In this document: positions 2,889 to 42,912 of the stretch, one piece after another
Layout: the number at the start of each line of letters is the position of its first letter
How positions within the stretch are numbered: position 1 is the first letter of the stretch
Assembly (NCBI GenBank): GCA_973895155.1
Contig: OZ316892.1
Span: 5,550,476 to 5,614,475, forward strand
Direction: 5' to 3'
Source of the DNA: Marsupella aquatica
Lineage: Eukaryota > Plantae > Marchantiophyta
Length of the DNA stretch: 64,000 nucleotides
Notes under the pieces: model-generated
What the model saw: only the letters and a program-made list of their open reading frames with translations
Databases searched by the model: none
Told to the model about the DNA's origin: nothing
Made by a program: the position numbers and the translations under genes

Positions 2889-3214
2889 TTTATTTTGATT
2901 GAAAGGAAAGGAGTAAGAACGCTGAGTAGACTCTCCCCAGTTTAATAGTGACATACATTCTTTGCAAGGAACCCATTTCAGGGTGAGCTGTCCCCAGGGA
3001 GCCCCATGGATCAGACAGGGACCCGCACTAGGAGAGAGAGAAGATTAAATCAGGTCACAAAGTGAACAACTAGAGACGAACTCACATCCACTACCCACAA
3101 AACTAATCCCACCAGCACACTCATATACCCTCTACACCCCTATGTGTGGAGTGGAGATTGAACTTGGCACCTTTTAGTTCCAGGCTAATCCCCTAGTCAG
3201 TTAGCCAGTTGGTT
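2889..3214 (-). mobile_element. tRNA-derived SINE, ~326 bp
   Basis: Flanked by a 13-bp direct repeat ATCATAGCCATAT (2876-2888 and 3215-3227). The minus-strand 5' end has A-box-like TGGCTAACTGA and B-box-like AGTTCAATCTC at tRNA-like spacing, with an A-rich tail at the other end. Confidence 0.7.
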
Positions 3215-4728
3215 ATCATAGCCATATCTTAGTTTGGCTTGGTAAGTTGCAAAATAATAATCCTAAATGACACTCTCCTTTCCCTCTTTCTTCTTTGCGG
3301 ACTTGCTGCCAATGGCCTTCTAGTGTCCATTTGTGCAAAATAATACAGGAGAGCTGTTGCAAACCACCAATTGGATTTATGAAAACTGTAGCTAGGGGAG
3401 TATGGTGTGGAGGGGCATTTTCCTATTTGACCCCTATCAGTATATATAGCCGGGGCTCATCCTGAAACATGCTTAATATTTTGTCTTGTAGTGATATGTA
3501 AGTGGATAAAATATGAGATTAGAACTAGAATACATACAAGTGTGAGTGGGATAAATAATATAAATAGAGCACATGCAAAGAAAAGCATCTATTGACTGAC
3601 CAATGACAAGTACAGTAAAGTGCTATGACACAAAGGCAGTAGGATGTGTGAACTTATTTATTAAATGTGTTTTTATTAATGATACTCAATTCAATAAACC
3701 CATAAACTTAGTAAAGAAAGCCATGAGGGGAAATTAACCCACAATGTGTTCAGATTATTTATGTTCAGGTTATTTAGGATCATTTCTCTCTCTCTCACTA
3801 GAAGACTCTTTGTTCAAGTGGTAGATATTAAAATCATTTGTTAATCTAAGACATTAAAAAAATAAAAAATTGAGAGGGCTACCAAAATGGGTTCAAAATT
3901 CTCTGAGTTAACAAAAATTAAAGGGGTACATAAATTAATTAAAAATCTAGATGATGCAAAGGATGCCCCTTGATAAGGCACATTGAAATAAATATACATG
4001 ACACAAAAAGATAAATAACACAAACTTTGAAAGGTGTATTCACCATATATCAATAGCAACTCCAAACATTTCTATATATACTCCATTTTGGGTAATTTGT
4101 GTTTCTATTAAGTTACCTAAACCATTCCTACTACTTGACTACTCGACTCAATTAGGCCCATTGATTAGCGGACCCTCCCCTGGTTAATTTCTTCGTCGAG
4201 GAACGATGAGCATTTTGAGGATCGTCGAGAAGGAAGATAGTAGTGGGGGGGGGGGGGAGCGTCAGCTCACTAAAACTCGGAATTACCAACCTCAACAATT
4301 CCAGCTTTCGTGCCAGTCGACATTGCTGTGAGTGGTAGCAGAGAGAAAGCTCAAACTCTCACAAGAAACACAACGCGCGGATTGAAGGAGAAATTGGAGA
4401 GCTACCGGGCTGGACGCTTCGACATGCAGCTTTTAAGTAATTTGGAAAACGAAACGGTATTGTGATCGATATCCTCTCTCTCTCTCTTGCGTTCAGTGAA
4501 GATGGAGCTGGCTGAAAGTCCCTTGATGGAGTCTATGGCTGTCTGGAGAAATCTGAGGTTAATATTGCTTTAGACACCTTGGGCGTCAGGGTGATGCATT
4601 CCACTGGAAACGGAATCCGAACTATTTCCTAAGATTCTTGCCTCTCCCCTCTTGCGACACTGTTACTCCTGCATTTGTCTCTTCAGCAGCACGAGCAGCT
4701 CCAGTTCAGCTGAATTGGAGCTTCACTC

Positions 4729-5862
4729 ATGGCCGCCCGCAGGACTATCATTGCCATCGTCGGTCCTACCGGGACGGGCAAGACAGCGCTTGGCCTCGCA
4801 ATCGCTGCACACCTCGGCACCGAAGTCATCTCCGTCGACTCGCTGCAATGCTACGAGCACGCGAACATCATGACGGCTGCTCCCACAGCAGCCGAGACCG
4901 AGCAAGCAAAGCACCACATGGTAGGTTATTTGCAGCCAGACGAAGAGCCTGGAGACGAGTTTGTGCTGCGAGCGGTAACCGCGGCAGATGGGCTCCACGC
5001 GAAGGGCAAGATCCCCGTCCTGGTTGGCGGCAGCACGAGCCTGATGTTGCCGCTGCTGTTTGCTCCAGCTCGTTGTTCAAACAATGAGCACACTTTGAAA
5101 GGCTCGTCGAATGATGCAGCGGGAAAGAGCCCTGGACGGTTGCGGTGGCGAACGCTTCTAGTCGTTCTAAATGCCAAGACCCAGGAGTGCTTGGAAAAGA
5201 GATTGGACGCCCGGGTGGAGGACATGTTGGCAACGGGGTTGGTGAAAGAATTGCAGGACTTGTATTCGCTGCAAAAGAAGCTTTTGCCGGAGCAAAATGG
5301 GGCGAATCTGACGAAGGGTGTGTGGAAATGTATTGGGTATCAGGAGCTGTATCCCTTTTTGGTTGCGACAGACAACACTCTGAGAGTCGCTCCAAGCCCC
5401 GAGATTCCACCACTTGAAAACATTGAGAGTGGGAATGCTAATTATAAGCAAGTGGACGCGGTTGCGGATGGGGAGCGGTTGTTCAGGGAGGGAATTGAGC
5501 TGATGAAGGAGAACACATGGCGGTATGCAAAATGGCAGACCACGTGGGCGGAGACTGTGCTGGTGCCTGCGTTGAGGGCGGAGGAGATGCCAGTGCACCG
5601 GTTTGAGATCCCATCTGCGACCTGCGCGGAAGAGTCAGAAAGAGAGGGAGGATTCGAGAATAGGTGGATGGAGAGTGTAGAAGGTCCGGCCCTGAGGCTT
5701 TGTGAGACTTGGAGGGTGGCGGCGCAAGAAGATGATGCTGGTCCTGGTGCCGACGCGGCGGTGGGTGAGGTAATGAAGGAGAATAATATCCAGAAGTTTC
5801 AACAGTGCGGAGACTCAGATCGAGATGTTTCAACAATACGGGGTCTCAGATCGAGATGTTAG
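4729..5862 (+). CDS. IPT: Isopentenyltransferase (DMAPP transferase), adenylate-type architecture, fungal IPT-LOG-like; intronless, 377 aa
   Basis: P-loop GPTGTGKT, ISVDSLQCY, HHMVGYL, VLVGGSTSL, RLDARVEDMLATGL, KCIGYQE, T-x-RYAKWQ-x-TW. No tRNA-binding insertion after VGGS and no C-terminal Zn finger. Confidence 0.93.
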   Translation: MAARRTIIAIVGPTGTGKTALGLAIAAHLGTEVISVDSLQCYEHANIMTAAPTAAETEQAKHHMVGYLQPDEEPGDEFVLRAVTAADGLHAKGKIPVLVGGSTSLMLPLLFAPARCSNNEHTLKGSSNDAAGKSPGRLRWRTLLVVLNAKTQECLEKRLDARVEDMLATGLVKELQDLYSLQKKLLPEQNGANLTKGVWKCIGYQELYPFLVATDNTLRVAPSPEIPPLENIESGNANYKQVDAVADGERLFREGIELMKENTWRYAKWQTTWAETVLVPALRAEEMPVHRFEIPSATCAEESEREGGFENRWMESVEGPALRLCETWRVAAQEDDAGPGADAAVGEVMKENNIQKFQQCGDSDRDVSTIRGLRSRC

Positions 5863-7107: not shown

Positions 7108-10100
7108 CTACCCGGAGTAAACGTCAAGGGCCAAACGAGGTCTAGCAATCAGCGTAAGTGGTGTTTTGGGCCAAACGAAGCCCTTCACGAACTCAGTTGC
7201 GTCGATGTCGGCCGCAGTCTTACCATGAGGAGGACTCCAATCAAAGGCATGCAGTAGAGTCGTGAGATTCCTCTGAACCAACAGCTGCCCCATGTTTGCG
7301 CCTGGGCACTTCCTTCTCCCACTTCCAAAGGGGAACAAGGTGAAGATATTACCTTCTGCAGGATTCATCATCTTTGAGCTCAGAAACCTCTCCGGTTCAA
7401 ACTTCTCAGGGTTTTTCCAGTAGAGAGGGTCCCGATGGATGGCCTTCAAGTTCATCAGCACGGCAGTGTTTGCTGGGACGTAGAAGCCTTGTAAGGTGGT
7501 CTCTACCTCGGTGAAATGGGGCACCATCACAGGGGCGGGAGCGTGCAAGCGAAATGTTTCGTTAATGACTGCCTGGAGGTAGGGCAGGTTGGGGAAATCG
7601 GACTCCTCGACTCTCCTGTCTTTGCCCACTACGTCGTCGATCTCCTTTTGCAGCTTTGCAAGGGTGTCTGCGGACAGACCAGAAACAGTCAGGATACACA
7701 CTGGAGCTCTGAGGAGACCTTAATTCTATTCCATTGAACTACAAAAAAACCAAACGAATTCAGCAACTGATAATAATTCGCAGTGGATGTTGACTCCCCT
7801 GATTCGAACTTCAAGTTTAAATGAAAGACTAGATGATCAATCGACCGGAATGATTTCATTATCGAATCCACGCCCTCGGAATTAATGGGCACATTGCTTA
7901 AGGATCGATCGCATGTAACGCCTCGATCTCAGGTACCCATTCTGATTTTTCTGTGACGGTGAGCAGTTCTGGCAGTGCTTTCATTGTCTCGTTATCGTTC
8001 AGTTTTGTTCAAGATGAGAATACGGGAAATAGCCTTGAATCTTAAAAGGAAACTTTCAAATGTTTTCATTATGTCTCATTCTAGCTTTCTACCAATCGTG
8101 GGGTGTTATTATTATTAGACTACTTAAAATGCATCCAGAAGAAAAAGATGAACATCTCCGTGACTTACTTGGGTTCCTCAAGAGCTCTATGAGAGCCCAC
8201 TCTGTAGTGAGGGCATTGGTATCTGTTGCTCCCACAACCATGTCCAAAATGCAACCCATGAGTCCGTTTTCGGTAATTTTCCCTTGCTCATTAAAGGTCA
8301 GCAGAAGATCCACAAAATCTTGGTCGACGTGGTCCGTGCCTTTCCTCTTTATTTTGTGTTCCTGCAATTACAATTGAACCAACACGTTAGACTTCAATTG
8401 AACAAGATCTCCAGGACGGCAACCCAACATTTTTTGGGCCACAGGCTATTCTAATATTTCCTTTTTGGCCATAGTTGTCGGACACAACATATATATTGCG
8501 CCAATATAATGGACAGCTCTAAGACCTTAACATTCCGGTTTAAGTCTTCAATATCTGTTGTCTGTCAACTGAAACTGAAACGCTTTTCACATGCATGAGT
8601 TCGCATAAGCTTGAATGTTCTTCTTTCTCGCATGCCTGTAATTTACTGTACCTCGATAATCTCTCCAAATACTGTATAACAGAGTTGCTGGTAATCCTTG
8701 AACTCTTTCTGCAGTCCTTGAAAATCCGTCCATGCAAGCCATGGGAACAAGTCCCCTAAATTCAACTGCGAGAAGAGAGTAGTTGCGCCCCTGACGATTT
8801 GCTTGAATTGGTCGGTTTTGGAGGTAATCAAATCGGAGTACCGCTTCCCTACGACGATCGTGGAGATACTATTGAGTGCTGCTTCGATGACTGCAGCGCT
8901 GATTTCTATTGTGCCTCCAGAGTCGATCTTCCTTTGGATGTCTTTCACTAGAAGAGCCCCTGCAAGAATGCATGATCGAACAACTTAGACACTGAGACAT
9001 CCTGAGTAACGAAACAAGATCCATTAGCACGCCCAAACTGGGCGGGTTGCAACGCGTGTCCAGCCAAGCTCCCTTCCCTTCAAGAATCCTAATTAAACAG
9101 CTTGTGTGAGCCGCAACGCCACTCCTCAAAGTAATCATGGCTGGCGACAGAAATACTTCATGTGAAAGACTGGACATTGGGAGCGATGTTAGGCAGTTAG
9201 GCCTCATGCAACCAAACCTTAAGGAGCAATAGAGGAGACATGTACCGATGACCTCCACCACGTTTCCAATGCTAACTTGACGCTATGCCTTGTCCTTTTT
9301 GTGCCAGATACAGGTAGAAATTAACTAATCGAAGACGTAATGGAATTCCATTCTGAAAAATGTTACAATCAAAACACGATTTACGAAAAGTGATACATGT
9401 GTCAACGCGGTCGTCGGTTCCCGATGCGGTTTCTTATGCAAAGGCCAAAGATTTATGTCGATTAGGGAACATCACGTCTAAAGTAGTAAGAAATCAGTTT
9501 AAGCTATGAGGAACTTGGTTGAACAATTATGCGATGGAGTAGCCTGAATGACCATTCATTTCCAATACATTGAGAGCGACCCAATGAACCAAAACTTGGA
9601 GATTTTATGGAATCAGGTGACATTGAGCCCCTGATATGCGAGTTGCGTCAGTGACGTAAAAGAATCCAACAGTGCAATTACAGATAGACGTTCAGCAGTC
9701 CATACCTTCACGCCTCCTGAAGTCCTCATAATATGCAAGCTTAGATGCAGTGAAAAAATTTGAGATCAACAACTTCTTCAGGGTCCTAAAGCTCTCGTTG
9801 TAGCTTGAATACAGAAGATCTTCGCGGTCAAAACCGATGTACTGCGCAGCAGTTTTCATAAAACTCTTATTCGGTCTGTTTGCAAACAGAGCATCCTTGG
9901 TCTTCAGAACCTCCTCAGCTCCTTCCGCGGAACAAACAACGATCATACCGTGGGAACCCATGCGGAAGTAGAAGATCTTCCCAAACTCTTGGGCCATCTT
10001 CTCATACCATTGGCCTACATCTGCTACATCCACGGAGAAGAGAGCACCTACGATTGGCAAATTTCGGGGGCCTGGCGGTAGCTTGGGCCCCGAGGTGGAC

Positions 10101-10225
10101 CCTGACAAGAACTGCCAGAAGACCAGTGCAAGAACTCCCGCAGCCAAAATTATCGTCAACGTTCCATTTTCGAACGAAACATTTTTCGCCCAGTTGGCGA
10201 TTTGTGCAGTGGATCCCATACTCAT
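7108..10225 (-). CDS. Cytochrome P450, CYP71 clan (A-type), 4 exons: 10225-9706, 8959-8652, 8361-8169, 7667-7108 (~526 aa)
   Basis: TM anchor plus PPGP hinge, I-helix GATDT, ETFR, PERF and heme motif PFGSGRRKCPG. GT-AG junctions join in frame (1581 nt). Confidence 0.93.
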
Positions 10226-15959: not shown

Positions 15960-17554
15960 TTACGCCGGCAGGGCATCCTCATTAACCTCATCTTCTTTCT
16001 TGGCTTCTTCAATTAAAGCCAAGAGTGTCCGCAAGACGTCCTTTCTATTTTCCTCACGCTGATCGAATCTGAAAGAATACCAACCAAACTTAATGTCAGT
16101 TCACTGCTCCTCCTTGAGATCAAGTCAACTACGAAGGTCTTCCCTGTTCCACAGCTATCAAGGAAGTCTAGAGCTTAGAAAAGGCATGCCGTCTACTACT
16201 TGTGTCCGCATGTTCTCTTCTATCTATTCCTTACGACCAAATTTGAGTGAGGAGTTATGGCAAATACCTCTCACTAATAATAGTCAATTCGTCTTTGTTT
16301 GGGTTGTAACGTTTCCCCACCATAAACAGCAGCCGCTCTTTTTGTACAGGTGTTAGCCCAAGCTCCTTCACGTAGACTGAAACTTTGACCTTGCGGTTCT
16401 TTGGGTGAAATGCATCTCCTCCGGGACTCAACACGACCCTCGTCTCCCACCTCAAAATCGGCCCCTCCCCAGGGGGCTCATCTTTTGGAGCACCCTTTTT
16501 GGGATATGCATCCGCTAAATTTCCATCGGCACAGGGAGACAAAAAAATCAAAACACGAAATTACACAACACGCACATGCCAATGATAGAAATAGTAGTGT
16601 TGCTCTTGGCAAAGAAGAACTGCTTTCCAATCTATTGCATAGCGTTTCAATTCATAATTTCGTTTCTTCTCTTTTTCTGTAATATACGTGTAACAGTGAA
16701 TTTTCGTGTGTTACAGCCACACGAATGTGTATGAGGTGCATCCAAACCTGAGATCATGTCATAGAATGTAGGGTGGCCCATCCATTCTTCAAAAATCGGC
16801 CGCGCATCATACAGATGTTCAATCGTTTCATCGACTGGAATCTGTGCCAACTCATCTTCAAAGTCTTGGTCATATCTACCGAAACGTTGTTTCTTGGTGA
16901 GCTTCTTCCGTCTCACTGGCTTCTCCTCTGCAGGCTTGTCCCCCTCTGCGGAAAATGATTGATTGAGATGATAAAAGAGAGATCTCTAACAGATTACGTC
17001 CACAGTGCACCCTAGGTGGAGCAGAGATGCTGAAACATTGAACACGTCTGTCGACCCATGGGTACATCATCATACAGCAAAGGCAACTAACAGCAGACTT
17101 TGATGCAATCCGTTTCTTTTCGACTACCTTTTCGACCTTAACATCCTCACAAATAATTCTAGGGTTTTTCGTCTCTCTCTGCCCCTCCTCTGTGAATCTC
17201 TCGTTAGCCGAGATTTCCTGCTTACATGCAACTTCTGTCTCTCTTCAAAACATAATCTAGTTTGAGGACCGGCATTTTGGAATCCCGTTTCCGCCGAACT
17301 CCACACTTGCTAGTGAAGAAACCCGAGGGTCAAATGGCAGCTACAGTACCTGCAGGCGGTGGAGAGCCGTCATCGGCCCCAGAGTACTGTCTCACAGCAG
17401 AACCCCAGCTATCGAAACACGAGGTGGGCTGCTGCTGCTGCTGTAACCCAAACAGGGACGATGAATTGGGAGCACGGCAAAGATTCAGACCCAAAACTCG
17501 CGACGACAGAGAACGAGAAGAGCGCCCCAGAATCGATGCGACTGCTTTCTGCAT
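15960..17554 (-). CDS. Mitochondrial small-subunit ribosomal protein mS35 (S24/S35 family), 4 exons: 17554-17350, 16945-16748, 16514-16268, 16068-15960
   Basis: Arg/Ser-rich presequence; LRWETRVVLSPGGDAFHPKNRKVKVSV..KELGL...RL..MVGKRY....DELTIISERFDQREENRKD; in-frame GT-AG junctions. Confidence 0.88.
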
Positions 17555-19765: not shown

Positions 19766-22700
19766 TCATTTTCTCATGGTGTTCAAATCCAGTAAGTGGC
19801 GCATAGTTGGCCGACCATGTGGACAATTCCAAGGGGAATCCAGTTCTGCTAGATGAGACAGTATCTGCAAAGAGAGCAACATCCACCAAGTTGACACGAA
19901 TCAGGAGTGTTTTTCTTAAACCGTCATTCGCCATCTAAAAGGCGGAGGTGTCCAAGACTTCTCCCTTTTTCACATTCCACTCATTCTTCTCCTCTCCTAT
20001 GCTATTTTGTTCCACAATTTCAGAAAAAGGGTACAGTTTATGACGAAACCTGGTGGATCTAGGTTTTGTCATGCCTAGTGGGGGTTAAAGACAGACGATG
20101 GCTCAACTTCTCAATACACGCAGGAGGAAACCGTAGAAAATTTCTTACCCTTTCCATTTCTGCTTTGCTCAAAGGATCACCAATCATAACAGATGTCCTG
20201 CATGCTCGTGACGCTAACATAGCTCTGACTCGGGATGGGCGAGGCAACAAACTACAGGCCTTCTGAGTCGTTGATAACACAGCTTCGTTAGCAAGAAGCG
20301 AGATTAATTCCTGCACATCTGAGCAAGATGGAAGTATTTCAATAAATGTGAAGGACTTGTTCAAATTCGAACAGTGAGGATGACGTGATGTAATGACCTC
20401 AAATCAGTTAACTATCTTCACGCCAGAAGTCTCCAAAAGTGAGCCACCTATCCCCCAAAACGTCAACCTAGACACAAAATGCATTCCAATTGCATGCTAG
20501 ACCTCTACCGAAGCTCGCTGAAGAAAATGTACCTCCAATACCAAAGGTTACATTTTGGCTGAAAGGTACAGCCGATAACTGAAGTCTTTGACCTGCTAGT
20601 GCGTTTTCCTGTTCAACAAAATCAAAGCCATTTTGTCTGGTGGCATCACAAGGTCCACAATTCAAGTCAGTAAGAGGTTTCGACCGAGCAGGATCTACCC
20701 TCAACTGACAGTATCCACGCACCATAATAGAATCCCCACAAAGGGCTTCGCCTCTACTAAAGCATATTTAGTTATCCAACGAGCAGATTGCCTGTGGTAA
20801 GGATTTCAGACTTGTCTAAATCATTTTCGACAAAAATGATTTGTGTCTCAAGCCTCCATCCATTGGCTTCTTGTCCAAGGATGTACAAAGTTAGTTAGGT
20901 ACCTGAAGGTCTCTATGTGCGATATTACAGTCATCTCTTCAGCAGCAGTAAGCTCCAGCTGCGACGGCCTGCAGAACATCTTAACATTAAAAGAATCCAC
21001 GGCTTGCGAGAGAGTTACGACAACTTTTCAATTTCAGCAAAACTTGGACATAGAGAAAGGAAGTTGTAATTTATCTATTTTTCGAGTCCAACCTCCGACA
21101 AGATCCACTCTCAAAACTCAGTCAGGAACGATTTGGTTCTTCGTAAACTATTTGTACCTCAGGAGAGGTTGACGATTGAGCACAGTTGCCTTTGAAAGCC
21201 GTTCAAAATTGTATTTCTCATCTGAAGCATGCTGCCATTACAGTAACACCCGTCAAAATGGGAAGCTTGGAAGTGAGCGGTAGAAAAATGCAAAACAAGA
21301 AGCTCCCAAAGCTATTTGACATCAAGATAGTGGCACTGAGCGGAACGGATCTCCGACTTTCGGAATACAGGCTTATAGGAACCATGACTTGAACCTGATC
21401 AATGATAAAGACGTCGTCATCGATCTTGGCCATAATGAAGCCCAAGTTAAACTGACCCAAAACCTGCCCAACCACTACTTCAGGATCAGATATGCTTGCG
21501 GCATTAGGAAAAACGACCCATAAATTCCAACAACACGCTCGGATAGTATCCCAGAGAGAGCATTGAGCTTGGCTGCAACAGTGCATGCCGTAAAAACCAA
21601 CTCGAGATTTAGGAACTCTACCTACTTCATTCCTTTCAAACACCTAATTCGAAAGTACATTAGGACATGTCACAAAACGTTGCCAAAGGAAAAGAGGAAA
21701 TTATAGTGTAGATTGGGTGGATTTGAGAACCTGCATTCTCTTAAAATCACCCTTATTGAAGCTGCGCTCCAGCTCCGTAGCTGCAGCTTTCAAGACTGCT
21801 GCCTTCTCAGTATCATCTTTTCCAACAGCACCCAGCGTGGCCGCAGCATAACCACTGTTTTTCAGACCAAGCATTGCTGTTGATTACTATCAGATTTGGT
21901 TACCCTTGTACAGCAGTCTACCTGAGAAATCTGGACGTCAACATCTCCAACACTAAGAAAGCTAGTCAGAGTAGATACAAAATGCTGACTAGGTTCATTC
22001 GGCTTCATTCTCACCTTTTCCTCTTTGGCAAGTGTTTCCCACCCGAGGAGGTTTTGTAACTAGGCTGTAAAGAGAAATCTAGCTTCCTTTGTAGTTTTTC
22101 TTTATCCATTTGAATCACCGCCCTTTGCTGAGATGGTGACTTCGTCTCTTGCTCAGTGTGAGACACTGTCGTTTCAGAATCATATTTGCTTCTGCTTTCG
22201 ATCAAGACTTGTGTCCTTTCTTGCTGTACTTGGCTATCGTCTTCTACATTTCCCAGAATAGGCTCTTCAGATTGAGCAACTTTCCTCCTCCAGTTAGAAT
22301 CTTCTAGTCTTTGTCCCGGGACTTGGTTGACACTTTTACTGCTGGATTTAACAGACCCTGCACACATGTGAGGTTCTCGAGACTGACTTCCTTCTACCCC
22401 TTTACGTCTTAGCTGCACCGTTCCGGTATCGACTTTAGTTGCCGTTGATGACCTGAACAGCGAGCTTGTATCCAATTTGCCATTTGAACAGGGCACCATC
22501 GTTCTCAGTTTAACTGATGCTTTGCTTGCAGGAATGGCATCCAGGTCATTTTCTCCCAAGGGAGGAAGCACAGTCTCATCCTCGGCTGTACAGTTCCCAT
22601 TGTGAGACGCAGTCAATTTGTCCAATCCACATCCATCGGATGTATTAGATACCAGGTCATCCTCGTCATGCATATCATCAACATCTTCTTTCCCATCTTC

Positions 22701-25598
22701 GTCATCATCCTTTCTGGTAGAGCCCAACTGCCTCCACCGCTTTAAAAGTGGCACTTCACTTAGGACATCACGCGACTCTTCCACAGGCCTCTTGACTCGA
22801 GATCCACAAGGCACGAGGGTAGCTTGCATTTTTTTCTCAGGAAATGCATTCGCCCGACTCTTCGCTCGTGAAGCAGAGGTTTCAGTGGAATCATTTGTGG
22901 CTTTGAGTTGGAAGGATTCGAGAGACAATGGAGCCCTTCCAGAGACGCTCGTCTCAGTTTCAATAGCCCCTTCAGATGTGCAAACCACAAATTCTTCCTT
23001 TTCTACTTCTGCCTCGTCATAAGAGCATGCATCTATTGAAGCATCTAGTTGGAAAGGACTGTCAGAAATTGTCCTTCGTTTCCCCACTTTATTCTCTGAA
23101 GACGTCCCTTTTTGAGACAGGCGCCCACTTTCCAAGCTGTTGACTGCGTATGTATATTTTGTAGGGCTGTACGCTTTCTCAAGAGTCTCTCTAAGAGCTC
23201 CCAAAAGCTCATTTTCAGAATGTAGGAAAAGCTTTCGTTTGTCAGGTGTTACATTCACGTCATACGCTGAGGTTGGAAGGATGAAGTTGAGCACCGCCAT
23301 TGGGTACTGGACGGAGTTGAACGACCTATATAGCTCATTCAGTAACTTGGCAACTTTGGGCAGGTCTACAGGTCGGCCGTTAACATAGAAAAACTGACGA
23401 TCTCCTGAAGGACGACCAGAGCCTGCACCTGGCTTCGACACAAACCCTTCGACACTGCAAGTGTCGGATATCACGAGATCCAGCTTTTCCATGCAAGAAG
23501 CTGTCTTTGTTCCAAATACTGTAACAAGATTATCCCTCATTGATGTATTTCCCTGTGTTTGGACTACAACATTACGGCCTCCCTTCCCCGCTTGATGGCT
23601 ACATATGATCCGGACTCCATTTGCAACCAAAGCATATGCCTGAAAGCGCAAGCCGCATACTTCAGATGACCAGCAAGAAAGATTGAGATATAATCAACAG
23701 AGTTTTCGTGATAACTCAACTCCCAGACATGTAACATACAGCAAAGCTTGCAGGCTTCCCAAGTAAACAGGGTAGGCAAATTGCACCGGTCATGACTTCA
23801 AGATGCTCTGTTTGGGCGGGAATTGCTTTCCTAACAAGTAAGATCCCAGTTTCCTGCATTGGCACCTCCATCACTATCCTAGAATTTGGAGGGGGCATTG
23901 AAGGTCGGACGATATACAAGATAAGACTTGAACTTAATTTTCAAGAAGAATTAAGAAACCTGGATATTGAACTCGACGATGCCTCTGGTCATGGATATAT
24001 TGCAAATAACCAGGTGAGTCAAACCTAGACTCTGCCACCGCAACGAAGATCTAAGACTGAGAGATTGGGTGGAAGAGAGTGGATAGCAACAACGAATACC
24101 AACTGGTTAAAGGTCACAAAACCCAGAAAAACTGCAATGAAAGTCATTTCTATGCCAATGGACTTGACGAATGCAAGGTGGAAAGAGAGAATAATTACCT
24201 GAAGGACAGACAACAGCCGCCCATACTCCCGCCGAAGGTTATTCTCACGCCTGAACTCCTTGAAGCGAACCGGTAGTGGGGAGAAGAGCTTTGCAACCGA
24301 TACAGTGGTTCCAACCGACCGAGCAACATTTTCCTGAGAAACAATCTTTCCCGAGTGATCATACTCCAGACGCACAGCAATTGGGTCATCCTTAGTCCTT
24401 GTAATGATGCTCACCTTTGCCAAGGCACAGAGAGAGCTTAATGCCTCACCCCGAAATCCAAACGAATGGAGAGACTGCAAATCTGCGAACTTCGAAATTT
24501 TCGAGGTATGGTACTTCAGCGTCAATCCCTGGAACATAGCATTCAGGTCAAATGAATTACTTTGGAACTGTCATCTCATGAGCTTTGGACGCTAGGTCAT
24601 TGCTGAAGTAGCCGCTGTAAGATCAAAGTACAGAAATTGATTCAAGAATTGATTTGGGGATTCAAGAGCATTCTAAACAGATTACAGACTTGATTTGGAG
24701 ATTTGACTACATTTTAAGAGTCATGTCATTTCGATGTTGTAAACAGCTATTGTAAAGCATTGTAAACAGATTCATACTTGACTTCGAGATCCAGAAGAAT
24801 TCTAAAGAGAATGCTGCACGTGTATGTTATTCTTCGAATGAAATCTTTAAATCCCACATTGACTCTCACAACTCACAGATTCAACTTTGGCTCAAGGGGA
24901 TCTCGAACTGAGGGGATTCAGCCAACATGGTGCTCTTTCAAAAATTGTTGTTATCAGGATCCCTATTTCACCTACAAAAACTACTACGCCTATCAAGATT
25001 TTTTCCACGGCTCGTCACTCAGAATCCAGTTTCAATGAAGAGGCCTTGCCCTTCCAAATTCAACAAAAAAATTATTAAGACGGAGAGCAAACGCTCCTAT
25101 AGGTTCCAGTCTAACTACGTCTCGCTTTCCTTTGCCCTAGACTTACGTTATTCTATTACTTCTAGTGCTCTGACCTTGGACTGCTTTCTATCTCTGCCGC
25201 AATTGGGCATTTGTGGACTGTGGAATCAAATAACTGATACTGAGCATTACGAAACAAATTCATAAGCCTCAACTCTTAAGTCCATTCATTCATTCTGAAA
25301 GTTCTAAAAATTAGTCTGGGTTGGAAGGGTTTGTAGAAAGTAAAAACAGAAGGCAACTTGCCTCGTAATTGTCTGGGGAAACTCCGGTGCCGTTGTCGGC
25401 AACTTCGATGATCTCAGCTCCATGATCTTTGAGACGAATGTCAACATTGGTAGCCCCGGCGTCCAAGCTATTCTCCACCAGCTCCTTCACGGCAGTAGCG
25501 AGGTCCAGAACCACCTGCCCGGAACAAATTCTGTGAACGGCAGCTTTATCAATCGGCTTGATCTTCCCCTCGACACCGCTAGCAGCAGCAGCAGCCAT
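19766..25598 (-). CDS. PMS1: DNA mismatch repair protein PMS1 (PMS2 ortholog, MutL-alpha endonuclease), 10 exons: 25598-25362, 24528-24199, 23639-22015, 21854-21731, 21463-21395, 21231-21158, 20968-20903, 20636-20533, 20318-20149, 19864-19766
   Basis: [53 protein letters not shown], endonuclease motif [26 protein letters not shown]. The first intron is GC-AG. Confidence 0.96.
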
Positions 25599-25771
25599 GG
25601 TCTCTTACACCAAGGACGCTTGTGCCTCGAGCGGCACAATCTGTTCAAAGAACACTGCTCTCCATCCCTTCCTTCCACTGCATCCACACTACTACAACCT
25701 TCCCGAAACTGAACAGGGCAAAACAACGTGCGAAGACCCCTGAAAATCCACAATCTCGTTGACCCAACAAT

Positions 25772-28710: not shown

Positions 28711-29461
28711 AAAAGTTGCATGGTTCCTCTTCCTGGCCCAGGTGAATAAGCTCATTAAATTCCCTCAATCAAGCGATGGATTCATACTCCTTTGTGACTT
28801 TGAAGCATTCACTCCCGGGGATCACTATCACCTGTTATCTCTAGTGATTGGCGAGTGGAGCTACTTGTGATCCCCTGCTGGTGATCACACATCAAAATGT
28901 GGAATATAGGGTGTGCACTCATTGATTTAAAGAAAATAACAAGATTTACCATAGTAAGGAGTGATTCATACACCATACACTTGTGATCCCTACCAAATAC
29001 TGTACCTTTACTTTTTACCCTTGTAACTTTTTGCTGACTCGGAAGCAAAGGTATCAGATCTTCACTTGGTCTCATTTGTCCAACATAGCAAGATTGAGAG
29101 CTAGGATAAGAGCCTACTATCTAGAATAGGGCGTCTCAAACTTGGCGCCCCCGTGCTTGGCTGCGGGCACGGGAATCTGAATATTCGCGTCCGTAAATTA
29201 TGCCGGGACCGACTTTTCGGTCTTGCAGAAACAAGAGGGGGAGGTTTGACACAGGTCGCGGGCTGCAAAGAAGTTGGGTTTATCCTGAGTTAAGGATTGC
29301 CCGCCCGCTTCCGTTTGAACCCCTCCGCCGACTTTACTCTGCACCATTTTGTCTGGTGCAAATCCATGACATTTCAAAATGCAAGCTTCCCTCTCTCTGC
29401 GATACGAGAGTTCGAGCCTTCCTAATTTTCCGTGTCGAAGTCGGGTGTAGACAAAGGAGAT

Positions 29462-30924
29462 ATGGCTAATTCTATGTGGGGCGATGTTAGATTTCCAGAG
29501 TTGTGTGGGTCTGGACTGTCTTTGGATCCTGCACTAGTCGTAGATTCTCAGGTGAATCAAGGCGGAGCAGACATGGTGGCCTCCAATGCGCATCCTTTTG
29601 CTGGAAGCGATGTCAATCGGAAGCTCACAACTTATCACTTGGGTAAGATTGTGGATTGGCTCGAAGATGCCGACAATTTCACGATGCTCAATGGATCCTC
29701 TCGCAGGGTTCCTGTGGGGACAAGGCACCCCTCCAAGAAAATTGTGTTCAAGCTCATGCTGGTGCATCTTCATGCCAACGGTTTCCCAAAATTTGTAGGC
29801 ACGGGAGACAACTTGGGAAAAAGGTTCCAACGTTACGTGAAGAAATACAAGGAGGCTCTGGCCATCAAAAATGATTCAGGAGCTGGGTTATCAATGGCGG
29901 AGCTTCGGGCAGGAATAACGTTGGAGGACAAACTAGACAAGATCTGCCCTCACTTCGAGAGAATGCATGCGCTGTATGGAGAGAGGGCCAATGTCGCTCC
30001 TCCTGCCACAGCGTCTGTTGGGTTGCCTGGACACACTGAGCTCTTCGTGGATGCAGGATCAGAGGACGAAGATCAAGATGACTACGAAGGAGTTGCAGAG
30101 CAGGACTTGGTGACACAAGGTATGTATGAGGGATTTACATGATTTACCTGCTGGAATAAATGCATAGTCATTGCTCCCATATGAACGAGGTTTTGACTTA
30201 TCGTGTGTTCCACATATTTTGGCGAAGAGGGTGGGGACTCACAATTTCAAGGCCAGCCGACTTCCACAGACAACCCACACCCACAGACGGTGCCGACTGC
30301 CACACAACCAGAAGCGAACGATGTGCGAGGGGTAAGGCCGGAAGTAGACCCGACTGCTTGTGGAGATCCCACATTTTGTTACACCCAAGATGGGCAGGCT
30401 TCACGAGCCCCCACAGCTACGCCAAGTAATCCCTCTGCCGACTTATCAAATGTCAACAGGAGGAATATAAGGAAGCAGGGTCCTTCCCAAGCTACGTCCC
30501 GGCCGAATTTGGTAGAAGTTTACATGGAAAGCTAGCTGAGAAGAATGTTTTCAGACAACAACTGATAGAAAGTAAAGATATTAAATGGAAAACAATGGAA
30601 CTGGTTGACAGAAGGGAAGCACGACAGTTATCGGCAAAGGATGTTAGACAGAGGGATAGGCTGCAGAGAAAACATGAGGAGAAGAGGGCTAGAATTGATC
30701 TGGAGCTTCAATTGACTCTGTTGAGAGCTCAACAGACGGCAGCACTCTTCACCGAGCTTATCCGTTCAAACTGAACACCTGCGGAAATGCTGACCATAAT
30801 GCAGGTCATTCCTGGCTTGAATGAGGGCAATATTCCAGGCCTCCATACACCAAATCAGCCATTGAGTGCTCAGACCAATGCTACAACAGCCCCAACAGAA
30901 GATGAAGTTGTCGATTTGCATTAG
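29462..30924 (+). pseudogene. Harbinger ORF2 (Myb/SANT-like DNA-binding partner), decayed
   Basis: VDWLEDADNF...RFQRYVKKYKEA...SGAGL...KLDKICPHFERMHALYGERANV, an acidic tract and an intron from 30120. The coiled-coil tail continues after a frameshift near 30533 and an in-frame TGA at 30772. Confidence 0.75.
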
Positions 30925-31708
30925 TAGTACTTTTTTTGCAGCACTCTCAGGTTTTGTTATAGTTTAGTTTTGATTAGTTTTGATTAGTTATATAAGTGCC
31001 GAATGGTGTGTGCGTGCACCAACACTTTTTTGGCAATGCTCATTCTTTGTGTACCCGTTTGTTTACTAGATGTATAAATGCAACATTCGCCTATCAAACT
31101 TCATGAGATGTTTTTTGTATTCCATCGGTCTGAAATGTGATTTAATGTGCATCAAATATGAATTTAATGTGCGTCCATACAAATTAGTTTATCAAACTTC
31201 CATCTGCGGGATAAGTTCTCCACGTCAAATGCCCATCATCTCTTAGTTTATGTTCGGAAGTACTGTAACAAAGTCGTCTGGTTGACAGGTTTCATTTCAT
31301 TTCTAAGAAGACATTTCTAAGTTTAATTGACACACTACAAACTACGGGCAAAACGCAAACGACTGCACTCGACTACCGATTTAACTGGCACCTATGGGTA
31401 AGACGTAAAATACAGTTGACGACTTCACAAAAGGACCGAGGTTGGCCAACAGTGGCGGTCACTTCTCTACAGAGCGGCATCGTGAACTGAGCCAGTTTGC
31501 TTCATTCATGTCATTCATTGAAAGGGCAAAACAAAATGTTCATCATCCGAATAGGGCAAAACGCAAACGTCGTTACAAAAAGGGCAAAATGCAAACTTCT
31601 TTACAAAAAGGGCAGGCATTATACTTAGTCAATGCAAGGACAGTAGTGACCTTACGAAGGAACTACCGAAACTACAACTGCCAAAATTACGTGCTTAACT
31701 CCTGCACT

Positions 31709-31875
31709 CCCAAAAATCCCACGATTTCACTACCAAAAATCCCACGATTTTCACTACCAAAAATCCCACGATTTTCACTACCGAAAATCCCACGATTTCA
31801 CTACCGAAAATCCCACGATGTTACTACCGAAAATCCCACGATGTTACTACCCAAAATCCCCCGATGTTACTACCA
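31709..31875. repeat. Minisatellite of ~7 x 23-24-bp units inside the transposon
   Basis: CC(A/G)AAAATCCCACGAT(TTTC/GTT)ACTA repeated. Confidence 0.92.
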
Positions 31876-31980
31876 TCGGTCTATGGAGCTGTGGTCGCCC
31901 TTGGATGTTACTGAACAAAACCTCCAGAGCTCATTGGCCTACCATCATTTGCATATAGGCGGCCTCCATAAATGGGACAA

Positions 31981-32397
31981 TCATGGACTTGTGCCCTGCC
32001 AATTGTCATGAACTGAAGGGCCATCGACCGATCGTTGTGTCTTAACAGAAGCACTCAAGCTAGCGGTGGCCGAGTCTGCAGAACCTGTACCCCCATCACA
32101 ATCATCCGAAATGGAGCTGACCAGCGCAGTCATCGTGGAGGTAAAGCTGCATTCATCGTCATTGCTCTCATCTTCCAACACTTCATGTGCAAAGGGAAAG
32201 AACTTGTCCCATTCTATGCAAAGCACTTGCACAGAATGCCATGTCTTCTGGAAGTTGTAAACATCTCCAAAATACTCCTGAAACCGGTTCCGAACTTTAT
32301 GTGGCCAGGTGGGAAAATTCCATATGTCCAAGAAAAATTTGTCACTTGCAAAGTCCTCGGTGTCAATGAGCCACAATGGGGGACGTGGGTTCTCCAT
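31981..32397 (-). CDS. Orphan ORF inside the transposon (MENPRPPLWLIDTEDF..., aromatic-rich N-half, acidic/Ser-rich tail)
   Basis: Open frame of ~138 codons from an ATG, co-oriented with the transposase; no recognised family. Confidence 0.4.
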   Translation of the reverse strand: MENPRPPLWLIDTEDFASDKFFLDIWNFPTWPHKVRNRFQEYFGDVYNFQKTWHSVQVLCIEWDKFFPFAHEVLEDESNDDECSFTSTMTALVSSISDDCDGGTGSADSATASLSASVKTQRSVDGPSVHDNWQGTSP

Positions 32398-32674
32398 GGT
32401 AGGGCAGTTTGCAACGTAAGGGCAATGCTCCTTCTTCCTCTCCGAAACTAATGACGATAAAGCACGACAACCAGTAAGCAACGAATATGAGTGCCCTGAA
32501 ATCAGCTTTGCCTTCGACAACCATTAAGCTCAAAATACTCCTTCGCCTTTGACAACCAGTAAGCAGTCAACTCTTTCATAAGGCAGTCAAACTCCTTGGC
32601 CTTCGACTCATCATACCACATAATCATTGCAGTCAAACAAGTGTGTGATTGACTAGAGCGCAAATACAGTCCAA

Positions 32675-34200
32675 TCAGTGCCCTCCTGAGTTCATGAACC
32701 TTCCTGGTCTGCGATTGAACTCAAGGGCATGGTCCATGACCCTCACAAGTAGACTATTTCCTGCCTGTACAATTGCACGCCTTGACACTCGGCCAGAAGG
32801 ACGTTGTCCCACCTCATCTTCGTTGGGCAAGATGTCTGGGACGTTTAAAGCCTCATCTGCCTCAGTCCACAAATCATTTTGGGATATTACATAATTATGT
32901 AACTTCCCACATAGAGAGACCCATGTTACCAGCCAGGCACTATCTTTGGGCCTATTTAATTGTGTCCTAACCTCCTTAAGAGAATGCCACCATGATTTAA
33001 GCACTCCAATGCAATGTTCATTGGTGACACGGCACTTGGCCACACAGGTATTAAAATCCTCTTTATCAACAATCATGTCAGCCCTCTTGAAGGCACACAC
33101 AACATGAGGTAATGCCTGGTACCCACTGTCCCCTAAGATGTACTGCCCCTCTCCAAATAAGTTGTTACTGTTCACCTCTGTGCATAACTTCCATAGAGGC
33201 GATTTTCGTAAGCAAGTCAAGTCAGAGCATGACCCAGGCATTCCTGCAAAATGCACATCATTTCCATGTCATAAAAAGTAACCATAAGAATAGCAACAAG
33301 TATTTACAGCCTCAATAAGAATAAGCCAAGTACGCTATGAGGGGTACCAGTACCTGAGAACATATACAGAATTCTCCTTTTGTGGTCACACACCACCTGT
33401 ACATTCACAGAGTATCTGCTCTTTCGGTCATAGTAGCATTCCCCGTGCTTAAATGGACGTTGGGCTAGGGGAAGAAGAGAACCGTCTATAAGGCCAACAC
33501 ATCCTGGGAACCCATGTGCAGCAAACTCCTGGCTCAAAACAGCTCGCTCTTGTGATGTTGGCCACTGTATGTAATCGTTAAGCACATTCTCCAGAGCTCT
33601 GAAACACCTATTGGAAAAGTTGATGAGACTCCCATTGTTGACCCCCCATGTGGGGATCATGTGGTTCAAGCATGCCCCATTACCGTCATGGCCTAGACGA
33701 TCTAGGCAGACAGCCAACTGACAAACAATTGGTGCCTGTTCACAAAAGGAATCATTCTGAAACACAGGATGTGGGGTTATAAGGTCCACAAGATTAAAGA
33801 ATGAAGTTTTGGACATCCGAGTGAGCTGCCTAAATAATCTGTCTGGTAAATTATGGAAAAACTGAGTTGCAAATTCATTAGACTTAGGTGTTACATGCCG
33901 GGGCACCAAGTACCTTGAGTTGTACAGAACAAAGTACAACTCAAATAGGTCTGTTGGGTTTGCTTCCGAGTCCCCAACATTGTCCTCCCTTTCAGAGTCA
34001 AATGAGGAATCCGCGTTACAGGTGCCAGCATCATCTGATTCGCTGGAGACATAACCAGATGGGATATTCTCTAGAGAACCAATAGTCCCCTGGATGGAGT
34101 CCACATCAGAGTCGGATGTGGAATCCTGTAATGCAATACTGACCTCAAGCTTTTGCTTGACAAGTCTCAACTGATTTTGCCTCTCATAAACTCTTGGCAT
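32675..34200 (-). CDS. PIF/Harbinger DDE transposase (DDE_Tnp_4/HARBI1-like), 2 exons: 34200-33354, 33243-32675 (471 aa)
   Basis: FRQLTRMSKTSFFNLV, GFPGCVGLIDGS (D), YYDRKSRYSVNVQVVCD, PGSCSD, LGDSGY (D), RVTNEHCIGVLKSWW (E), LHNY. The GT-AG intron joins in frame with no stops. Confidence 0.92.
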
Positions 34201-39066: not shown

Positions 39067-42000
39067 TCACGGTAAACTGTTGTAGCCAAGATGATCCATC
39101 TCCTCGCGGTCGACGACAATCGGCTTGTCTGCCTCCCAGCTGGACCTTTTGCATATTTCTTCATGAGTTGGTTCGTATTCCTGGACAACAAACAATGACT
39201 CTTCCCAGTTAGCTTCACTCACACACCGCTAAAAGCACTGTCCACAGCAAACGATGTATTATACCGTTAACGTCCGAGCTATGTCACCTCCTGGCCCATC
39301 TTTGGCACCCGCCGGGCGTCCATGGGCACCGAACATAAGACGGAAGCCTAAACCGTGTACGACCATATGAGCCAATTCAGCAGAAATCACACGCTTACAG
39401 CGTACTAACACGAACTAAACCAGCCTGTGCAACAAGCATGCCAAATCCAATCGCGTCTCAGTCGAGTCGACTTTGGGAGTTGGGGGATCTCGAGTTAAAG
39501 AGCGAGGGTTGCGAGGACAATTTCACGCTTCTTTCCGGTCAGGTCAAGCAGAGAAAAATGCAGCCGTTAAAAGAAACGCTAGAGTCCATATGCTAGTCCC
39601 AGTAATTCGTCAAGCAATGGCTCGGTGGTGATGATGACGAAGACGACGCAGCAGACACAATGTTTAAACGCACCTCAAACTTGTCAAGAAGCTCACGAGC
39701 AGTCGGTGCAGAGAGCAAAATATTTCTGCTATTGACTTTAAGAAAGCCTTCCTCTACTGCCTTATCAAGTAAAGCCAACAGCAAATTGTAGTATCCATCG
39801 ACATTCAAGAGTCCCACCTGCACCACAGCCCCATCCCATTTCACTACTACTGTTAGAGTTGCCGATGAAAACAAGCATTCGTTCTTGAGGGTTCACGCTG
39901 CTATTCGTTTTCGTACATGATGCAAACCACGGTTGAAGGAAATACGAGATCACGAAATCTACGTGACTGTTTCGCTTAAAATGATGGTGGGCTTTACCGG
40001 CTTGTCATGAATTCCAAGTTGTACCCAAGTGATCATCTCGAGCAACTCCTCCAACGTTCCATATCCACCTGTGCAATAGGTTGCGGACGTAAGTAAAGAG
40101 CTGTACTGAAATCCAAAAGCGTCTAACGTAGGACCTGAGATCGTACTCTTCCGTTGTAGACAATCGATAATTTGGTAGGTGACTCGGTACCAAATGAGTG
40201 TGACACATGAACTTCCTAATTTCCGAGGGACAATTGTCTCGCCGAGGTATTCTGTCAGACGTACTAAATCGTCCGGCACATTGCCGTCGCTCGCACATGC
40301 AGGATGTTGTCATTGAACTTTGAGGGCGAAAATTCCAAACAGTACTCTTGCCAAGCTTGTCAGACTGACCAACATGCATCACCGGTAGAGGAGATGGCCA
40401 ATTGGCTGTTACCTGGCAGGGCAATGAAAGCATCAGCTTGGCGAGCCATTTCGGCCTTCCGCTCGTGCATGTCAGCCACAGACCTTAACTCCCCGACAGT
40501 TTGTCCGGAAATCTGGTGAAGGAGAGACACGGCAAATACGTTAGCGCTAAGAGGGGGTGAGGCACTTCCTTTCACACAATTCAACTCCATAGACACTCCA
40601 AAAATTCTCAAGGGGCCTATTCCCAACTAAGTACACCGAGACGTTCACTTCCGAAGTGCAATTGAAATACCCTACTCTTACGATGCGGAAACATTCTTAT
40701 CAGCCGGGTTCGTTTTGTTCTGTTGTCAACGACGCCCGATCAGTCTAAACTCGATTCCTGTTCTAAACTCTCTCGCACCGCTAGAACTGTCCATATATCT
40801 TGGGTTGATTTTTTGCAACTCCAGAATGCTCTTGGGAAACTGGGTTTCAGAGGCTATGACACGGGATTATACTCGGAGATAAGTTGGATGAACCGCCCAG
40901 TCCAGCTTTTCAATGACCTCTACTGAAAAATGAAGTACAAAGTCATAGCCGCAGTGTTAACAAGCGGGGAATCGGACCCGAATATTAAAACTTCCGAAAT
41001 TGGAAACCAACAATACAAAAGACGAGATGTGCAACGTACCGAATGAAGTGCTTTCGGGAGAACCCTGCGGAAACAGACAGAACAAACAAATCGAACAACA
41101 AGTTAGGCCAGATTGCACGTTGTGTTCATACTGAGCTTGTGAGGTAATTTGCTCATGCTAACGTAGCACTAGACCAGAAGTGTATGACGTTAGCTAGGAG
41201 ATCTGTACTGTAGCCAAAAGTTCGATGTTAGGGGATATAAAAGCTATCTTGAGACAATGGCCGTTCCTTATTCAAATATTATACACTGCAAAGTGTTCCG
41301 GTTCCTAATTACAGCCAATGAATCCAACCCCTACTAAGGACCAGGACGAAAGAACATAGCTACGCTTTGCATGAAAGCGGACGTGGGCAGGAATTCATGA
41401 GGACATCGGCTTCTCAACTATTCACTTCATCGGTAGACGAGACAATCTGGAATGCGCTCCCCGAGAGGAGTTCATTCCTCGTTCTGCTAGGGAGTGAAAT
41501 GGTACTGGAGCCCACATACTTACCCTATGACGTGACCTCCACCTTCATGAACAGTTTTTGAAATCTGCCCCATTAAACCCACACTTCCACCTCCATACAC
41601 CAAATCAATTTTCCGTCGCACCTGCCAGTATGACGCAGCCAAACAATCGTTAACAGAGACGACAGCGGCGAGCGTAATAAGATTGCAAGCAACAGTGAAA
41701 AACGCGGAAGACTGACAAAACCTAGTGAAGTTGGCGTAGCTTAGAAAAAAGAACGATTTAAGGCATCTGCTTATGAGCTAAGAAGATGAAACGTGTGCAC
41801 CAGACGCACCCTGGAACTGGAAAATCCAGTTCAGAGCTACGAAGGAGAGGAGAAACGTTACTTCGAGTAAACCAAGCAAAAGATGTGATTTACACGACAA
41901 GACAGGCTGCAAAATTGCACAAACTATCATCGACTGGGGGTCCACGCTGGTAACACTTGACGAGACATGCTGAGTCGAAATTCGGGTGCACCTTAAGTCC

Positions 42001-42912
42001 CATTCTTTGAAACCTAAGTTCGGGACCAAGCTTATCACGTATCACCAAAAATCCAAGACGTTCCGACTGGCTAGGAAAATTGCTGTCACTACTGTGCAGC
42101 GCGCAGACGTTGGAAGGAAATCGCTTCCCTCCCGAATATAATCATCCGCAGAACTATGAAATGAGATGATCGCCGGCAACGCATGGCGTAATCCCTCACA
42201 ACATAAGAGCTGTCTGGCTGCACTGTATTCTTTCCCGTTTGACCTTGCTGAATCCTACATTGTTAGCCCATCCGACGGACAGACAGATAGGCAACCATAC
42301 CAACGGTAACATCTACTGTGACAAGCGCTATGCGGAGATACGATACGGCAGCGACAACTAGTGGATTAGTTGGTTTCAAGTCTTCGAACTGAACGGGGTA
42401 ATAAACGGTGGCAGAATAGATGACGGGTACAACCAAAACACCGCCGCCATATCTTCAAATTTTGGCCGCCACAATTCTCCCTTCGAAGCAGGAGGCTCAG
42501 AAACGAATTTGCCACGAAAAGTCGCTCAGATTCTTCCTCTCAAACCCCATACAATAACCACGAATTCATTTGAATGTCGCAGAAAAGGACATTCAAGAAG
42601 AAGACCAGTAAACCATTCGAGGGTGAGAATGGATGAGAAGAGAGGAGACCAAAAGAAAGGAAGGAGGGTATACGTCGCCCTTCACTTCCTTCTTTCGACG
42701 TGGCTAACATGAACAAGAAGACCAGCCAGCGAAAAGGGAGACGGGAACGTGTCACATACCATTTCGTTTCCTAATTCGAGGGCTACATTGCTGTAGAGCG
42801 TCTTCTTTCCCGCACTGGCGCCACAGAAGACACAGATTCGCTTGAATCGTGACGCTTTAACGTTACTAGTCTCCATCTTGGGCCCCGACTGGTATTCCTC
42901 CTCGACAACCAT
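39067..42912 (-). CDS. LOG: Cytokinin riboside 5'-monophosphate phosphoribohydrolase LONELY GUY, 7 exons: 42912-42760, 41621-41524, 41064-41040, 40512-40413, 40068-39998, 39817-39674, 39180-39067 (234 aa)
   Basis: [74 protein letters not shown]. All junctions are GT-AG and in frame (705 nt). Confidence 0.96.

Follow-up and report, generated by a model that had tools for sequence, protein, structure and literature searches.

Background

The fungal IPT-LOG fusions, in which an isopentenyltransferase (IPT) is joined to the cytokinin-activating enzyme LONELY GUY (LOG), are represented by CpIPT-LOG of Claviceps purpurea and by IPTLOG1 and IPTLOG2 of Fusarium, the latter accompanied by a cytochrome P450 (P450). 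According to a review (PMC7913349), ADP and ATP are not substrates of the Claviceps enzyme, whose preferred donor is dimethylallyl diphosphate (DMAPP), and overexpression of the Fusarium IPTLOG raised the level of isopentenyladenine (iP) (PMC5203792). In plants, adenylate IPTs have been listed for angiosperms, with only class I tRNA-IPTs in Marchantia (PMC6071968), and adenylate IPTs have been described as having independent origins (PMC10338860). Bryophytes have been reported to be without adenylate IPTs, in a source which also calls the bryophyte cytokinin pathway unknown and gives LOG as a single-copy gene in Marchantia (bioRxiv 10.1101/2024.09.02.610783), while moss knock-outs have pointed to an unexplained tRNA-independent route (PMC4036517). 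Transfer of genes from fungi to bryophytes was found to be common in a survey whose filter demanded more than 50 donor species (PMC12513842). In this study, we report the analysis of an IPT gene in a 64,000-nucleotide stretch of the liverwort Marsupella aquatica (contig OZ316892.1, positions 5,550,476 to 5,614,475; hereafter the window). The gene is intact, lies in plant chromosomal DNA and belongs to the fungal short-IPT/IPT-LOG family; our favoured explanation, which we consider probable, is that it is an old transfer from an ascomycete, encoding an AMP-type IPT that would feed a native LOG without a tRNA step.

Methods

Phylogenies were built with FastTree from 169 rows and with IQ-TREE from 70 rows picked by hand over 258 shared columns. 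Short IPTs made up 30 of the 70 rows, plant class II tRNA-IPTs 2, further eukaryotic tRNA-IPTs 30 and bacterial or class I-like proteins 8; near-duplicates and most of the tRNA-IPT and MiaA rows without a name were omitted, and several of the tRNA-IPT labels were guessed from tree position. A tree of 42 rows was computed under the LG+C20 site-mixture model. The approximately unbiased (AU) tests were based on short constrained searches. Residue roles were mapped from the study of hop AIPT (PMC2836551), and the ESM Atlas clusters had at least 50 members each.

The IPT gene and its anatomy

The open reading frame (ORF) lies where the initial annotation had placed it, and its recognised parts are the following.

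4729..5862, + strand: predicted fungal-type adenylate IPT gene, 377 amino acids, coding sequence without introns, no N-terminal extension
4762..4785, + strand: P-loop, residues 12-19 (Thr14, Lys18), which by comparison with hop AIPT would bind the diphosphate of DMAPP (PMC2836551)
5026..5040, + strand: GGSTS motif, with Ser102 and Ser104 equivalent to Ser129 and Ser131 of hop; Thr and Tyr occupy these sites in eukaryotic tRNA-IPTs
5074..5133, + strand: short linker of predicted disorder, residues 116-135, at the site of the anticodon-binding domain in tRNA-IPTs

An in-frame stop 5 codons 5' of the ATG fixes the start of the ORF, so that an upstream extension is not possible, and the description of the gene as intronless holds for the coding sequence. 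The protein matched the Pfam families IPPT (E=3.8e-31) and IPT (E=3.7e-10) and missed the cut-off of the MiaA model (130 versus 149 bits). Both the anticodon-binding insertion and the zinc finger had been described as absent, and this was borne out: yeast Mod5 has about 71 additional residues relative to the family profile, forming its anticodon-binding domain, where the liverwort protein has a short loop, and a C2H2 zinc finger looked for in the protein was not found. The spacer between the GGS motif and the catalytic Arg motif is 64 amino acids long. In the short IPTs of fungi it measures 40-43, and among the tRNA-IPT rows with a pattern match almost all have about 100-250 (one 376-residue row has 68). 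The linker is indeed short at the point where tRNA-IPTs carry the domain, but it exceeds that of the fungal proteins by about 22 amino acids, and disorder is predicted for it (predicted local distance difference test score, pLDDT, below 50 at residues 116-135). All six motifs quoted as fungal in the initial annotation are present and can be aligned to IPT and IPT-LOG proteins of fungi.

The ORF is GC-richer than its flanks, as had been remarked (0.556 versus 0.41 and 0.44). GC content was rejected as evidence of transfer: GC at third codon positions is 0.62 in the ORF and 0.56-0.63 in exons 1, 3 and 4 of the neighbouring plant P450 gene, and the contrast is therefore one of coding versus non-coding DNA and gives no sign of foreign origin.

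Relatives and phylogeny

Ninety-five matches were obtained from 8,000 candidates, headed by P0002 (80% identity), a protein of Calypogeia fissa (57%) and P0004 (54%). Single-domain proteins and IPT-LOG fusions followed at 31-40% identity and 124-206 bits, with bacterial MiaA at no more than 98 bits. In an exhaustive profile search of 1.84 billion representatives the short family likewise ranked first, eukaryotic tRNA-IPTs scoring at most 218 bits (best 150 of the matches); on the family profile itself, hop AIPT scored 139 bits and Mod5 203 bits.

Full support for the short clade and for the liverwort clade was given by FastTree. With IQ-TREE, the clade of liverwort and fungal short IPTs received 99.8/100 and the liverwort clade 100/100 (70 rows), and both received 100/100 under the site-mixture model. 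A grouping of the liverwort proteins with plant class II tRNA-IPTs was rejected by the AU test (p=1e-5), as was one with bacteria (p=0.025). Kinship with the fungal family is thus firm. The fungal affinity proposed at the outset thus stands, while the proposed likeness to the IPT domain of the fusions needs adjustment: the fusions belong to the same short clade, but the nearest relatives outside liverworts are the stand-alone IPTs of the Cenococcum group (38-40% identity).

A metagenome locus scan returned 80 loci at low identity (24-46%) from 2 of the 64 parts of the collection, and a plasmid search returned 62 weak matches, the best 25 of which were annotated as miaA or had no annotation.

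One short IPT, P0022 (KAB8343006.1), is labelled Carpinus fangiana and nests beside Cladosporium; its label may reflect fungal contamination of that assembly or a second transfer into a plant.

Active site and predicted activity

The predicted structure (mean pLDDT 74.9) had hop AIPT (PDB 3A8T) as its top structural match (Z 29.2, root-mean-square deviation 2.7, 279/289 residues aligned), followed by Mod5 (Z 27.9, 2.4, 268/402), and Foldseek gave the identical order. The P-loop, Asp37 (equivalent to hop Asp62, which binds N6), Arg162, Ile202 and Gln270 are kept; Arg162 we take to be catalytic. Ser102, Ser104 and Lys200 occur in all 5 liverwort rows and in 24-25 of the 25 fungal-type rows, whereas the tRNA-IPTs have Thr (29/30), Tyr (29/30) and Gln (24/30) at these sites. 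The same Ser, Ser and Lys substitutions are seen in hop AIPT, where they set adenylate IPTs apart from tRNA-IPTs (PMC2836551). The adenylate-type anatomy of the initial annotation was thus borne out: the parts that bind tRNA are lost, and the residues typical of adenylate IPTs are kept.

The acceptor can be narrowed further. Of the three lysines that contact the beta- and gamma-phosphates in hop AIPT, K220 is kept as Lys200, K63 is replaced by Ser38 and K275 by Trp273; the loss of two of the three fits the Claviceps IPT-LOG, for which the use of ADP and ATP is reportedly excluded. By analogy with that enzyme, AMP is likely to be the acceptor rather than ATP or ADP, and AMP-type cytokinin synthesis is likely judging from the sequence. 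Ile202 points to DMAPP rather than 1-hydroxy-2-methyl-2-butenyl 4-diphosphate (HMBDP) as the donor, by residue mapping (PMC2836551). The homologues begin at the same point as the liverwort protein, bar one longer C. fissa gene model, and with no upstream extension the enzyme is therefore predicted to be cytosolic, using mevalonate-derived DMAPP. Tyr266 and Trp273 show the fungal/animal state, while the two plant class II rows carry Leu and Arg and the hop AIPT residues are Leu268 and Lys275.

Neighbourhood and integration in the plant genome

The other features recognised in the window are listed below.

7108..10225, - strand: A-type (CYP71-clan-like) plant P450, 4 exons, approximate boundaries, tail to tail with the IPT gene
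16255-16985, - strand: mitochondrial ribosomal protein gene (Pfam MRP-S28), between IPT and LOG, a synteny marker
20059-25604, - strand: PMS/MutL mismatch-repair gene, between IPT and LOG, a synteny marker
29426-34323, -/+ strands: Harbinger-like transposon with two DDE_Tnp_4 pieces (-) and an unassigned 238-amino-acid ORF (+), between the PMS gene and LOG
39067..42912, - strand: native plant LOG gene, 7 exons, 33 kb from IPT; all 6 donor sites checked begin with GT

One exon of the LOG gene is 96% identical to LOG of C. fissa, 85% to that of Marchantia and 78-81% to that of Riccia; these values mark the host as a leafy liverwort close to Calypogeia (Jungermanniales) and LOG as native. The solved relatives of the P450 were plant CYP71-clan enzymes in 4 of 4 matches, and we assume that they are not of the CYP735A type; ESM Atlas rows for this P450 were mixed. 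The neighbours are plant genes, as had been stated earlier.

Linkage of the IPT gene to plant DNA across the IPT-P450 junction is real. A 6,283-nt contig of run X1, with 0 differences and a depth of 18, contains both the 3'-terminal 140 nt of the ORF and the P450 gene in full; the remaining IPT pieces in this run are at a depth of 18-20, and the 5' flank into the ORF is covered by overlapping identical pieces. Since run X1 is possibly the source of the window itself, what it adds is confirmation of the assembly, not independent sampling. The window stretch was found in 4 runs from 2 studies, each with at least half of the sampled words; no RNA run was among those listed, which has no bearing on expression. 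The whole ORF is spanned by no single contig, because a second IPT copy breaks the assembly graph.

This second copy was found in runs X1, X2, X4 and X5 (corresponding to window 4660-5827) and is 87-89% alike in the coding region; its depth is equal and its flanks are unrelated. Within the 64-kb window no second copy was found. In X1, 19 of the 33 differences listed fall at third codon positions (p=0.004), the 33 being a subset with 144 further rows beyond them. The 3' end of the second copy resembles P0002 by eye, and on this sequence likeness P0002 is probably the paralogue type of the second copy rather than another taxon. A variable loop of the second copy, 90 nt long (5383-5472), is missing or replaced in X4 and X5.

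The IPT gene sits among native genes and has homologues in the related species C. fissa, where two pairs were recovered: IPT CAM6083353 with LOG CAM6083347 on a contig of 66,576,599 nt, and IPT CAM6116173/175 with LOG CAM6116181 on a contig of 8,285,957 nt. Accession numbers only 6-8 apart suggest that IPT and LOG lie close together at both loci. The two loci are alike (IPT 93.5%, LOG 99.2%) and are therefore counted as one lineage. The reading frame is kept between the copies and between the species.

A high-copy repeat lies just 5' of the IPT gene (2944-4050), with a summed depth in run X1 that reaches as much as about 100-fold that of single-copy DNA; a 639-nt part of it is missing in runs X3 and X4. 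A short tandem repeat at 31600-32000, within the transposon region, gives repeated peptide units in two ORFs.

Comparison with known systems

With CpIPT-LOG and the Fusarium fusions the liverwort protein shares the short clade, the motifs, the active site and the missing tRNA-binding domain, at 31-38% identity to the Fusarium proteins. It differs in being stand-alone, with no LOG domain and no detectable remnant of one in its tail, in having an intron-bearing native LOG 33 kb off, and in having a plant-type P450 beside it. No LOG Pfam match was obtained in the protein, and in a six-frame profile search of the downstream DNA the significant matches were the native LOG exons only. A decayed LOG domain in the tail was considered and rejected, the tails scoring -0.6 to -3.5 bits against the fungal LOG profile, each within the range of 200 shuffles.

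The stand-alone short IPTs of ascomycetes (Cenococcum geophilum, Botryosphaeria dothidea, Penicillium, Cladosporium and Elsinoe) resemble the liverwort proteins in having a single domain; the liverwort proteins differ by three additional loops and a variable tail. A functional test of these fungal proteins was looked for in the literature, and none was found. Five of them are P0108, P0132, P0155, P0162 and P0164, from Cenococcum geophilum, Botryosphaeria, Penicillium, Cladosporium and Elsinoe. Their sequences suggest that de novo cytokinin synthesis in ascomycetes is wider than the described fusions, and a part of them may represent first exons where a gene call was split, the P0015 cluster including pieces named LOG.

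The seed-plant ATP/ADP-IPTs, as exemplified by hop HlAIPT, have in common with the liverwort protein the fold, the size, the lost anticodon domain, the Ser-x-Ser motif and the Lys220 equivalent. They differ in that equivalents of Lys63, Lys275 and Leu268 and a transit peptide are missing from the liverwort protein, and the sequence score is lower; the likeness is probably convergent. The eukaryotic tRNA-IPTs (Mod5/TRIT1 and plant class II), together with bacterial MiaA and plant class I, share the IPPT core and the catalytic Asp, Arg and Thr, and are likely to be the ancestral pool. They differ by the anticodon-binding insertion, by a zinc finger that is usual in eukaryotes, and by GGT-x-Y in place of GGS-x-S. 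Agrobacterium Tzs and Tmr, which are AMP-IPTs, are alike in the adenylate acceptor, as predicted for the liverwort protein, and in the conserved Asp and two Ser (PMC2836551), but they are very distant (29 bits on the family profile, Z 17), and Tzs has Asp173, which goes with HMBDP, where the liverwort protein has Ile202. Neither Tzs nor Tmr was among the best 25 of the 62 plasmid matches.

The fungus-to-bryophyte transfers of KP4 and of a fungal fruit-body lectin (PMC12513842) are alike in the kind of event, the few introns and the fact that orthologues in vascular plants were not found; the present case differs in that IPT is the rate-limiting step of a hormone that the host itself uses. The main text of PMC12513842 does not mention cytokinin or isopentenyl, and its tables of horizontally transferred genes could list the family. 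The available part of PMC13164970 has no mention of the fungal short IPT family, and bryophyte or fungal terms looked for in PMC12066119 were not found. No report of a fungal-type IPT in liverworts was found in a literature search outside of which most subscription papers lay. New here are the native LOG 33 kb from IPT, the IPT-LOG pairing indicated in C. fissa and the second IPT copy.

Proposed explanation and alternatives

In the explanation that we favour, the IPT gene would have been gained from an ascomycete by ancient horizontal transfer, and its product would join DMAPP and AMP to give isopentenyladenosine monophosphate (iPRMP). This is a direct substrate of LOG, and the native LOG would convert it to iP with no tRNA step; the gene would be expressed and contribute to the hormone pool of the plant. 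Transfer in the direction from fungus to liverwort is likely. This direction follows from taxonomic spread, namely several ascomycete classes (as we presume the fungal members to be assigned) against one liverwort clade, and not from the tree, which does not settle it.

LOG is the fourth recognised host gene from IPT. Taking the bryophyte average of about 28,000 genes (PMC12513842), the chance of one insertion falling within four genes of a single LOG is about 3 in 10,000, or about 0.6% if two copies and some ten cytokinin genes are allowed for. Ordinary synteny after a lucky insertion is the likelier account of the closeness of IPT and LOG, since this is one event, noticed afterwards, with housekeeping genes between the two. 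A fungal IPT-LOG module might have been rebuilt in leafy liverworts from mixed parts, the captured AMP-IPT being kept by selection beside the single native LOG in a co-regulated neighbourhood. A bryophyte would then have a tRNA-independent cytokinin pathway whose origin is separate from that of seed plants, perhaps linked to the development of leafy shoots or to symbioses of Jungermanniales with fungi; we think this reading unlikely, though not far-fetched.

A number of observations weigh against the favoured explanation or parts of it. The nesting of the liverworts within the fungi is weak, the grouping with the Cenococcum group receiving 52/87 (70 rows) and 54/80 (42 rows), and two other topologies stand in the AU test: fungal monophyly with the liverworts as sister (p=0.39) and a sister relationship between plant class II and the entire short family (p=0.31). 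The trees were built without plant ATP/ADP-IPTs, the plant side consisting of the 2 class II rows. A fungal name, direct or via a cluster member, is attached to only 9 of the 25 short rows outside the liverworts; 15 are without a name and 1 is the row labelled Carpinus fangiana. The nearest ESM Atlas clusters are plant adenylate IPTs (0.95-0.96), which may be due to shared architecture and to the absence of small fungal clusters. Lastly, iP types in whole-plant profiles of four Jungermanniales, which may lack the gene, amounted to 3.8-6.7 pmol/g, similar to the 5.6 of Pellia and with no obvious surplus (PMC4431756).

Another history for the same gene and chemistry, whether an older plant relic lost widely, passage from bryophytes to fungi or an unsampled third source, would agree with the two topologies left standing. 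It would also agree with the place of the short family beside all sampled eukaryotic tRNA-IPTs, not within Pezizomycotina Mod5, a grouping with which was not rejected (p=0.066). The named fungal members nevertheless span Cenococcum, Botryosphaeria, Cladosporium, Elsinoe, Penicillium, Fusarium (3 rows) and Ustilaginoidea, against which the liverworts make up a single narrow clade with a long stem. The 95 matches included no protein of Marchantia or Riccia, although LOGs of both are in the same database, an absence of moderate weight as the search was word-based. Tyr266 and Trp273, with their fungal/animal state, are moreover unlike plant class II and hop AIPT, and we hold a different history to be decidedly unlikely. 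A gene of fungal origin with another role is quite unlikely as well. It might use ADP, ATP or another acceptor, make, perhaps together with the P450, a specialised prenyl-purine that serves defence or interaction with fungi, or be barely expressed. Lys200 corresponds to the phosphate-binding Lys220 of hop, fungal IPT-LOG genes cluster with P450 genes (PMC5203792, PMC7913349) as a P450 adjoins IPT here, and the lack of an iP surplus in leafy liverworts would be accounted for; yet all catalytic positions match the tested fungal family, the solved relatives of the P450 are plant enzymes throughout, and the frame has been kept across copies and species.

That the protein is a degenerate tRNA-IPT still modifying A37 of tRNA is very improbable. 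Among PDB sequences it matches yeast Mod5 best, at 95 bits, with hop AIPT at 64, and Ser38 and Trp273 are kept as in tRNA-IPTs, but the anticodon-binding domain and zinc finger are gone, and the Tyr that stacks on A36 has become Ser and the Gln has become Lys, which is the state of adenylate IPTs. Contamination by a fungus or a chimeric assembly, which an intronless, fungal-like gene spanned by no single contig could bring to mind, is very unlikely and hardly credible: the bridging contig has equal depth on both sides, the 5' flank overlaps, 4 runs from 2 studies contain the stretch, the independent C. fissa assembly appears to have the same IPT-LOG neighbourhood, and identity to the nearest fungal relatives is no higher than 38-40%.

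Conclusions

The IPT gene is a candidate gene for a tRNA-independent cytokinin route in one liverwort lineage. Cytokinin synthesis in Marchantia and Physcomitrium is not explained by it, no member having been found there. On the fungal side, the stand-alone members in Cenococcum and other ascomycetes enlarge the known fungal IPT family. If the favoured explanation is true, these liverworts would have a cytokinin route reported to be missing from bryophytes, and a plant would have obtained the enzyme that limits the rate of its own hormone synthesis from fungi, which manipulate plants with the same enzyme family.
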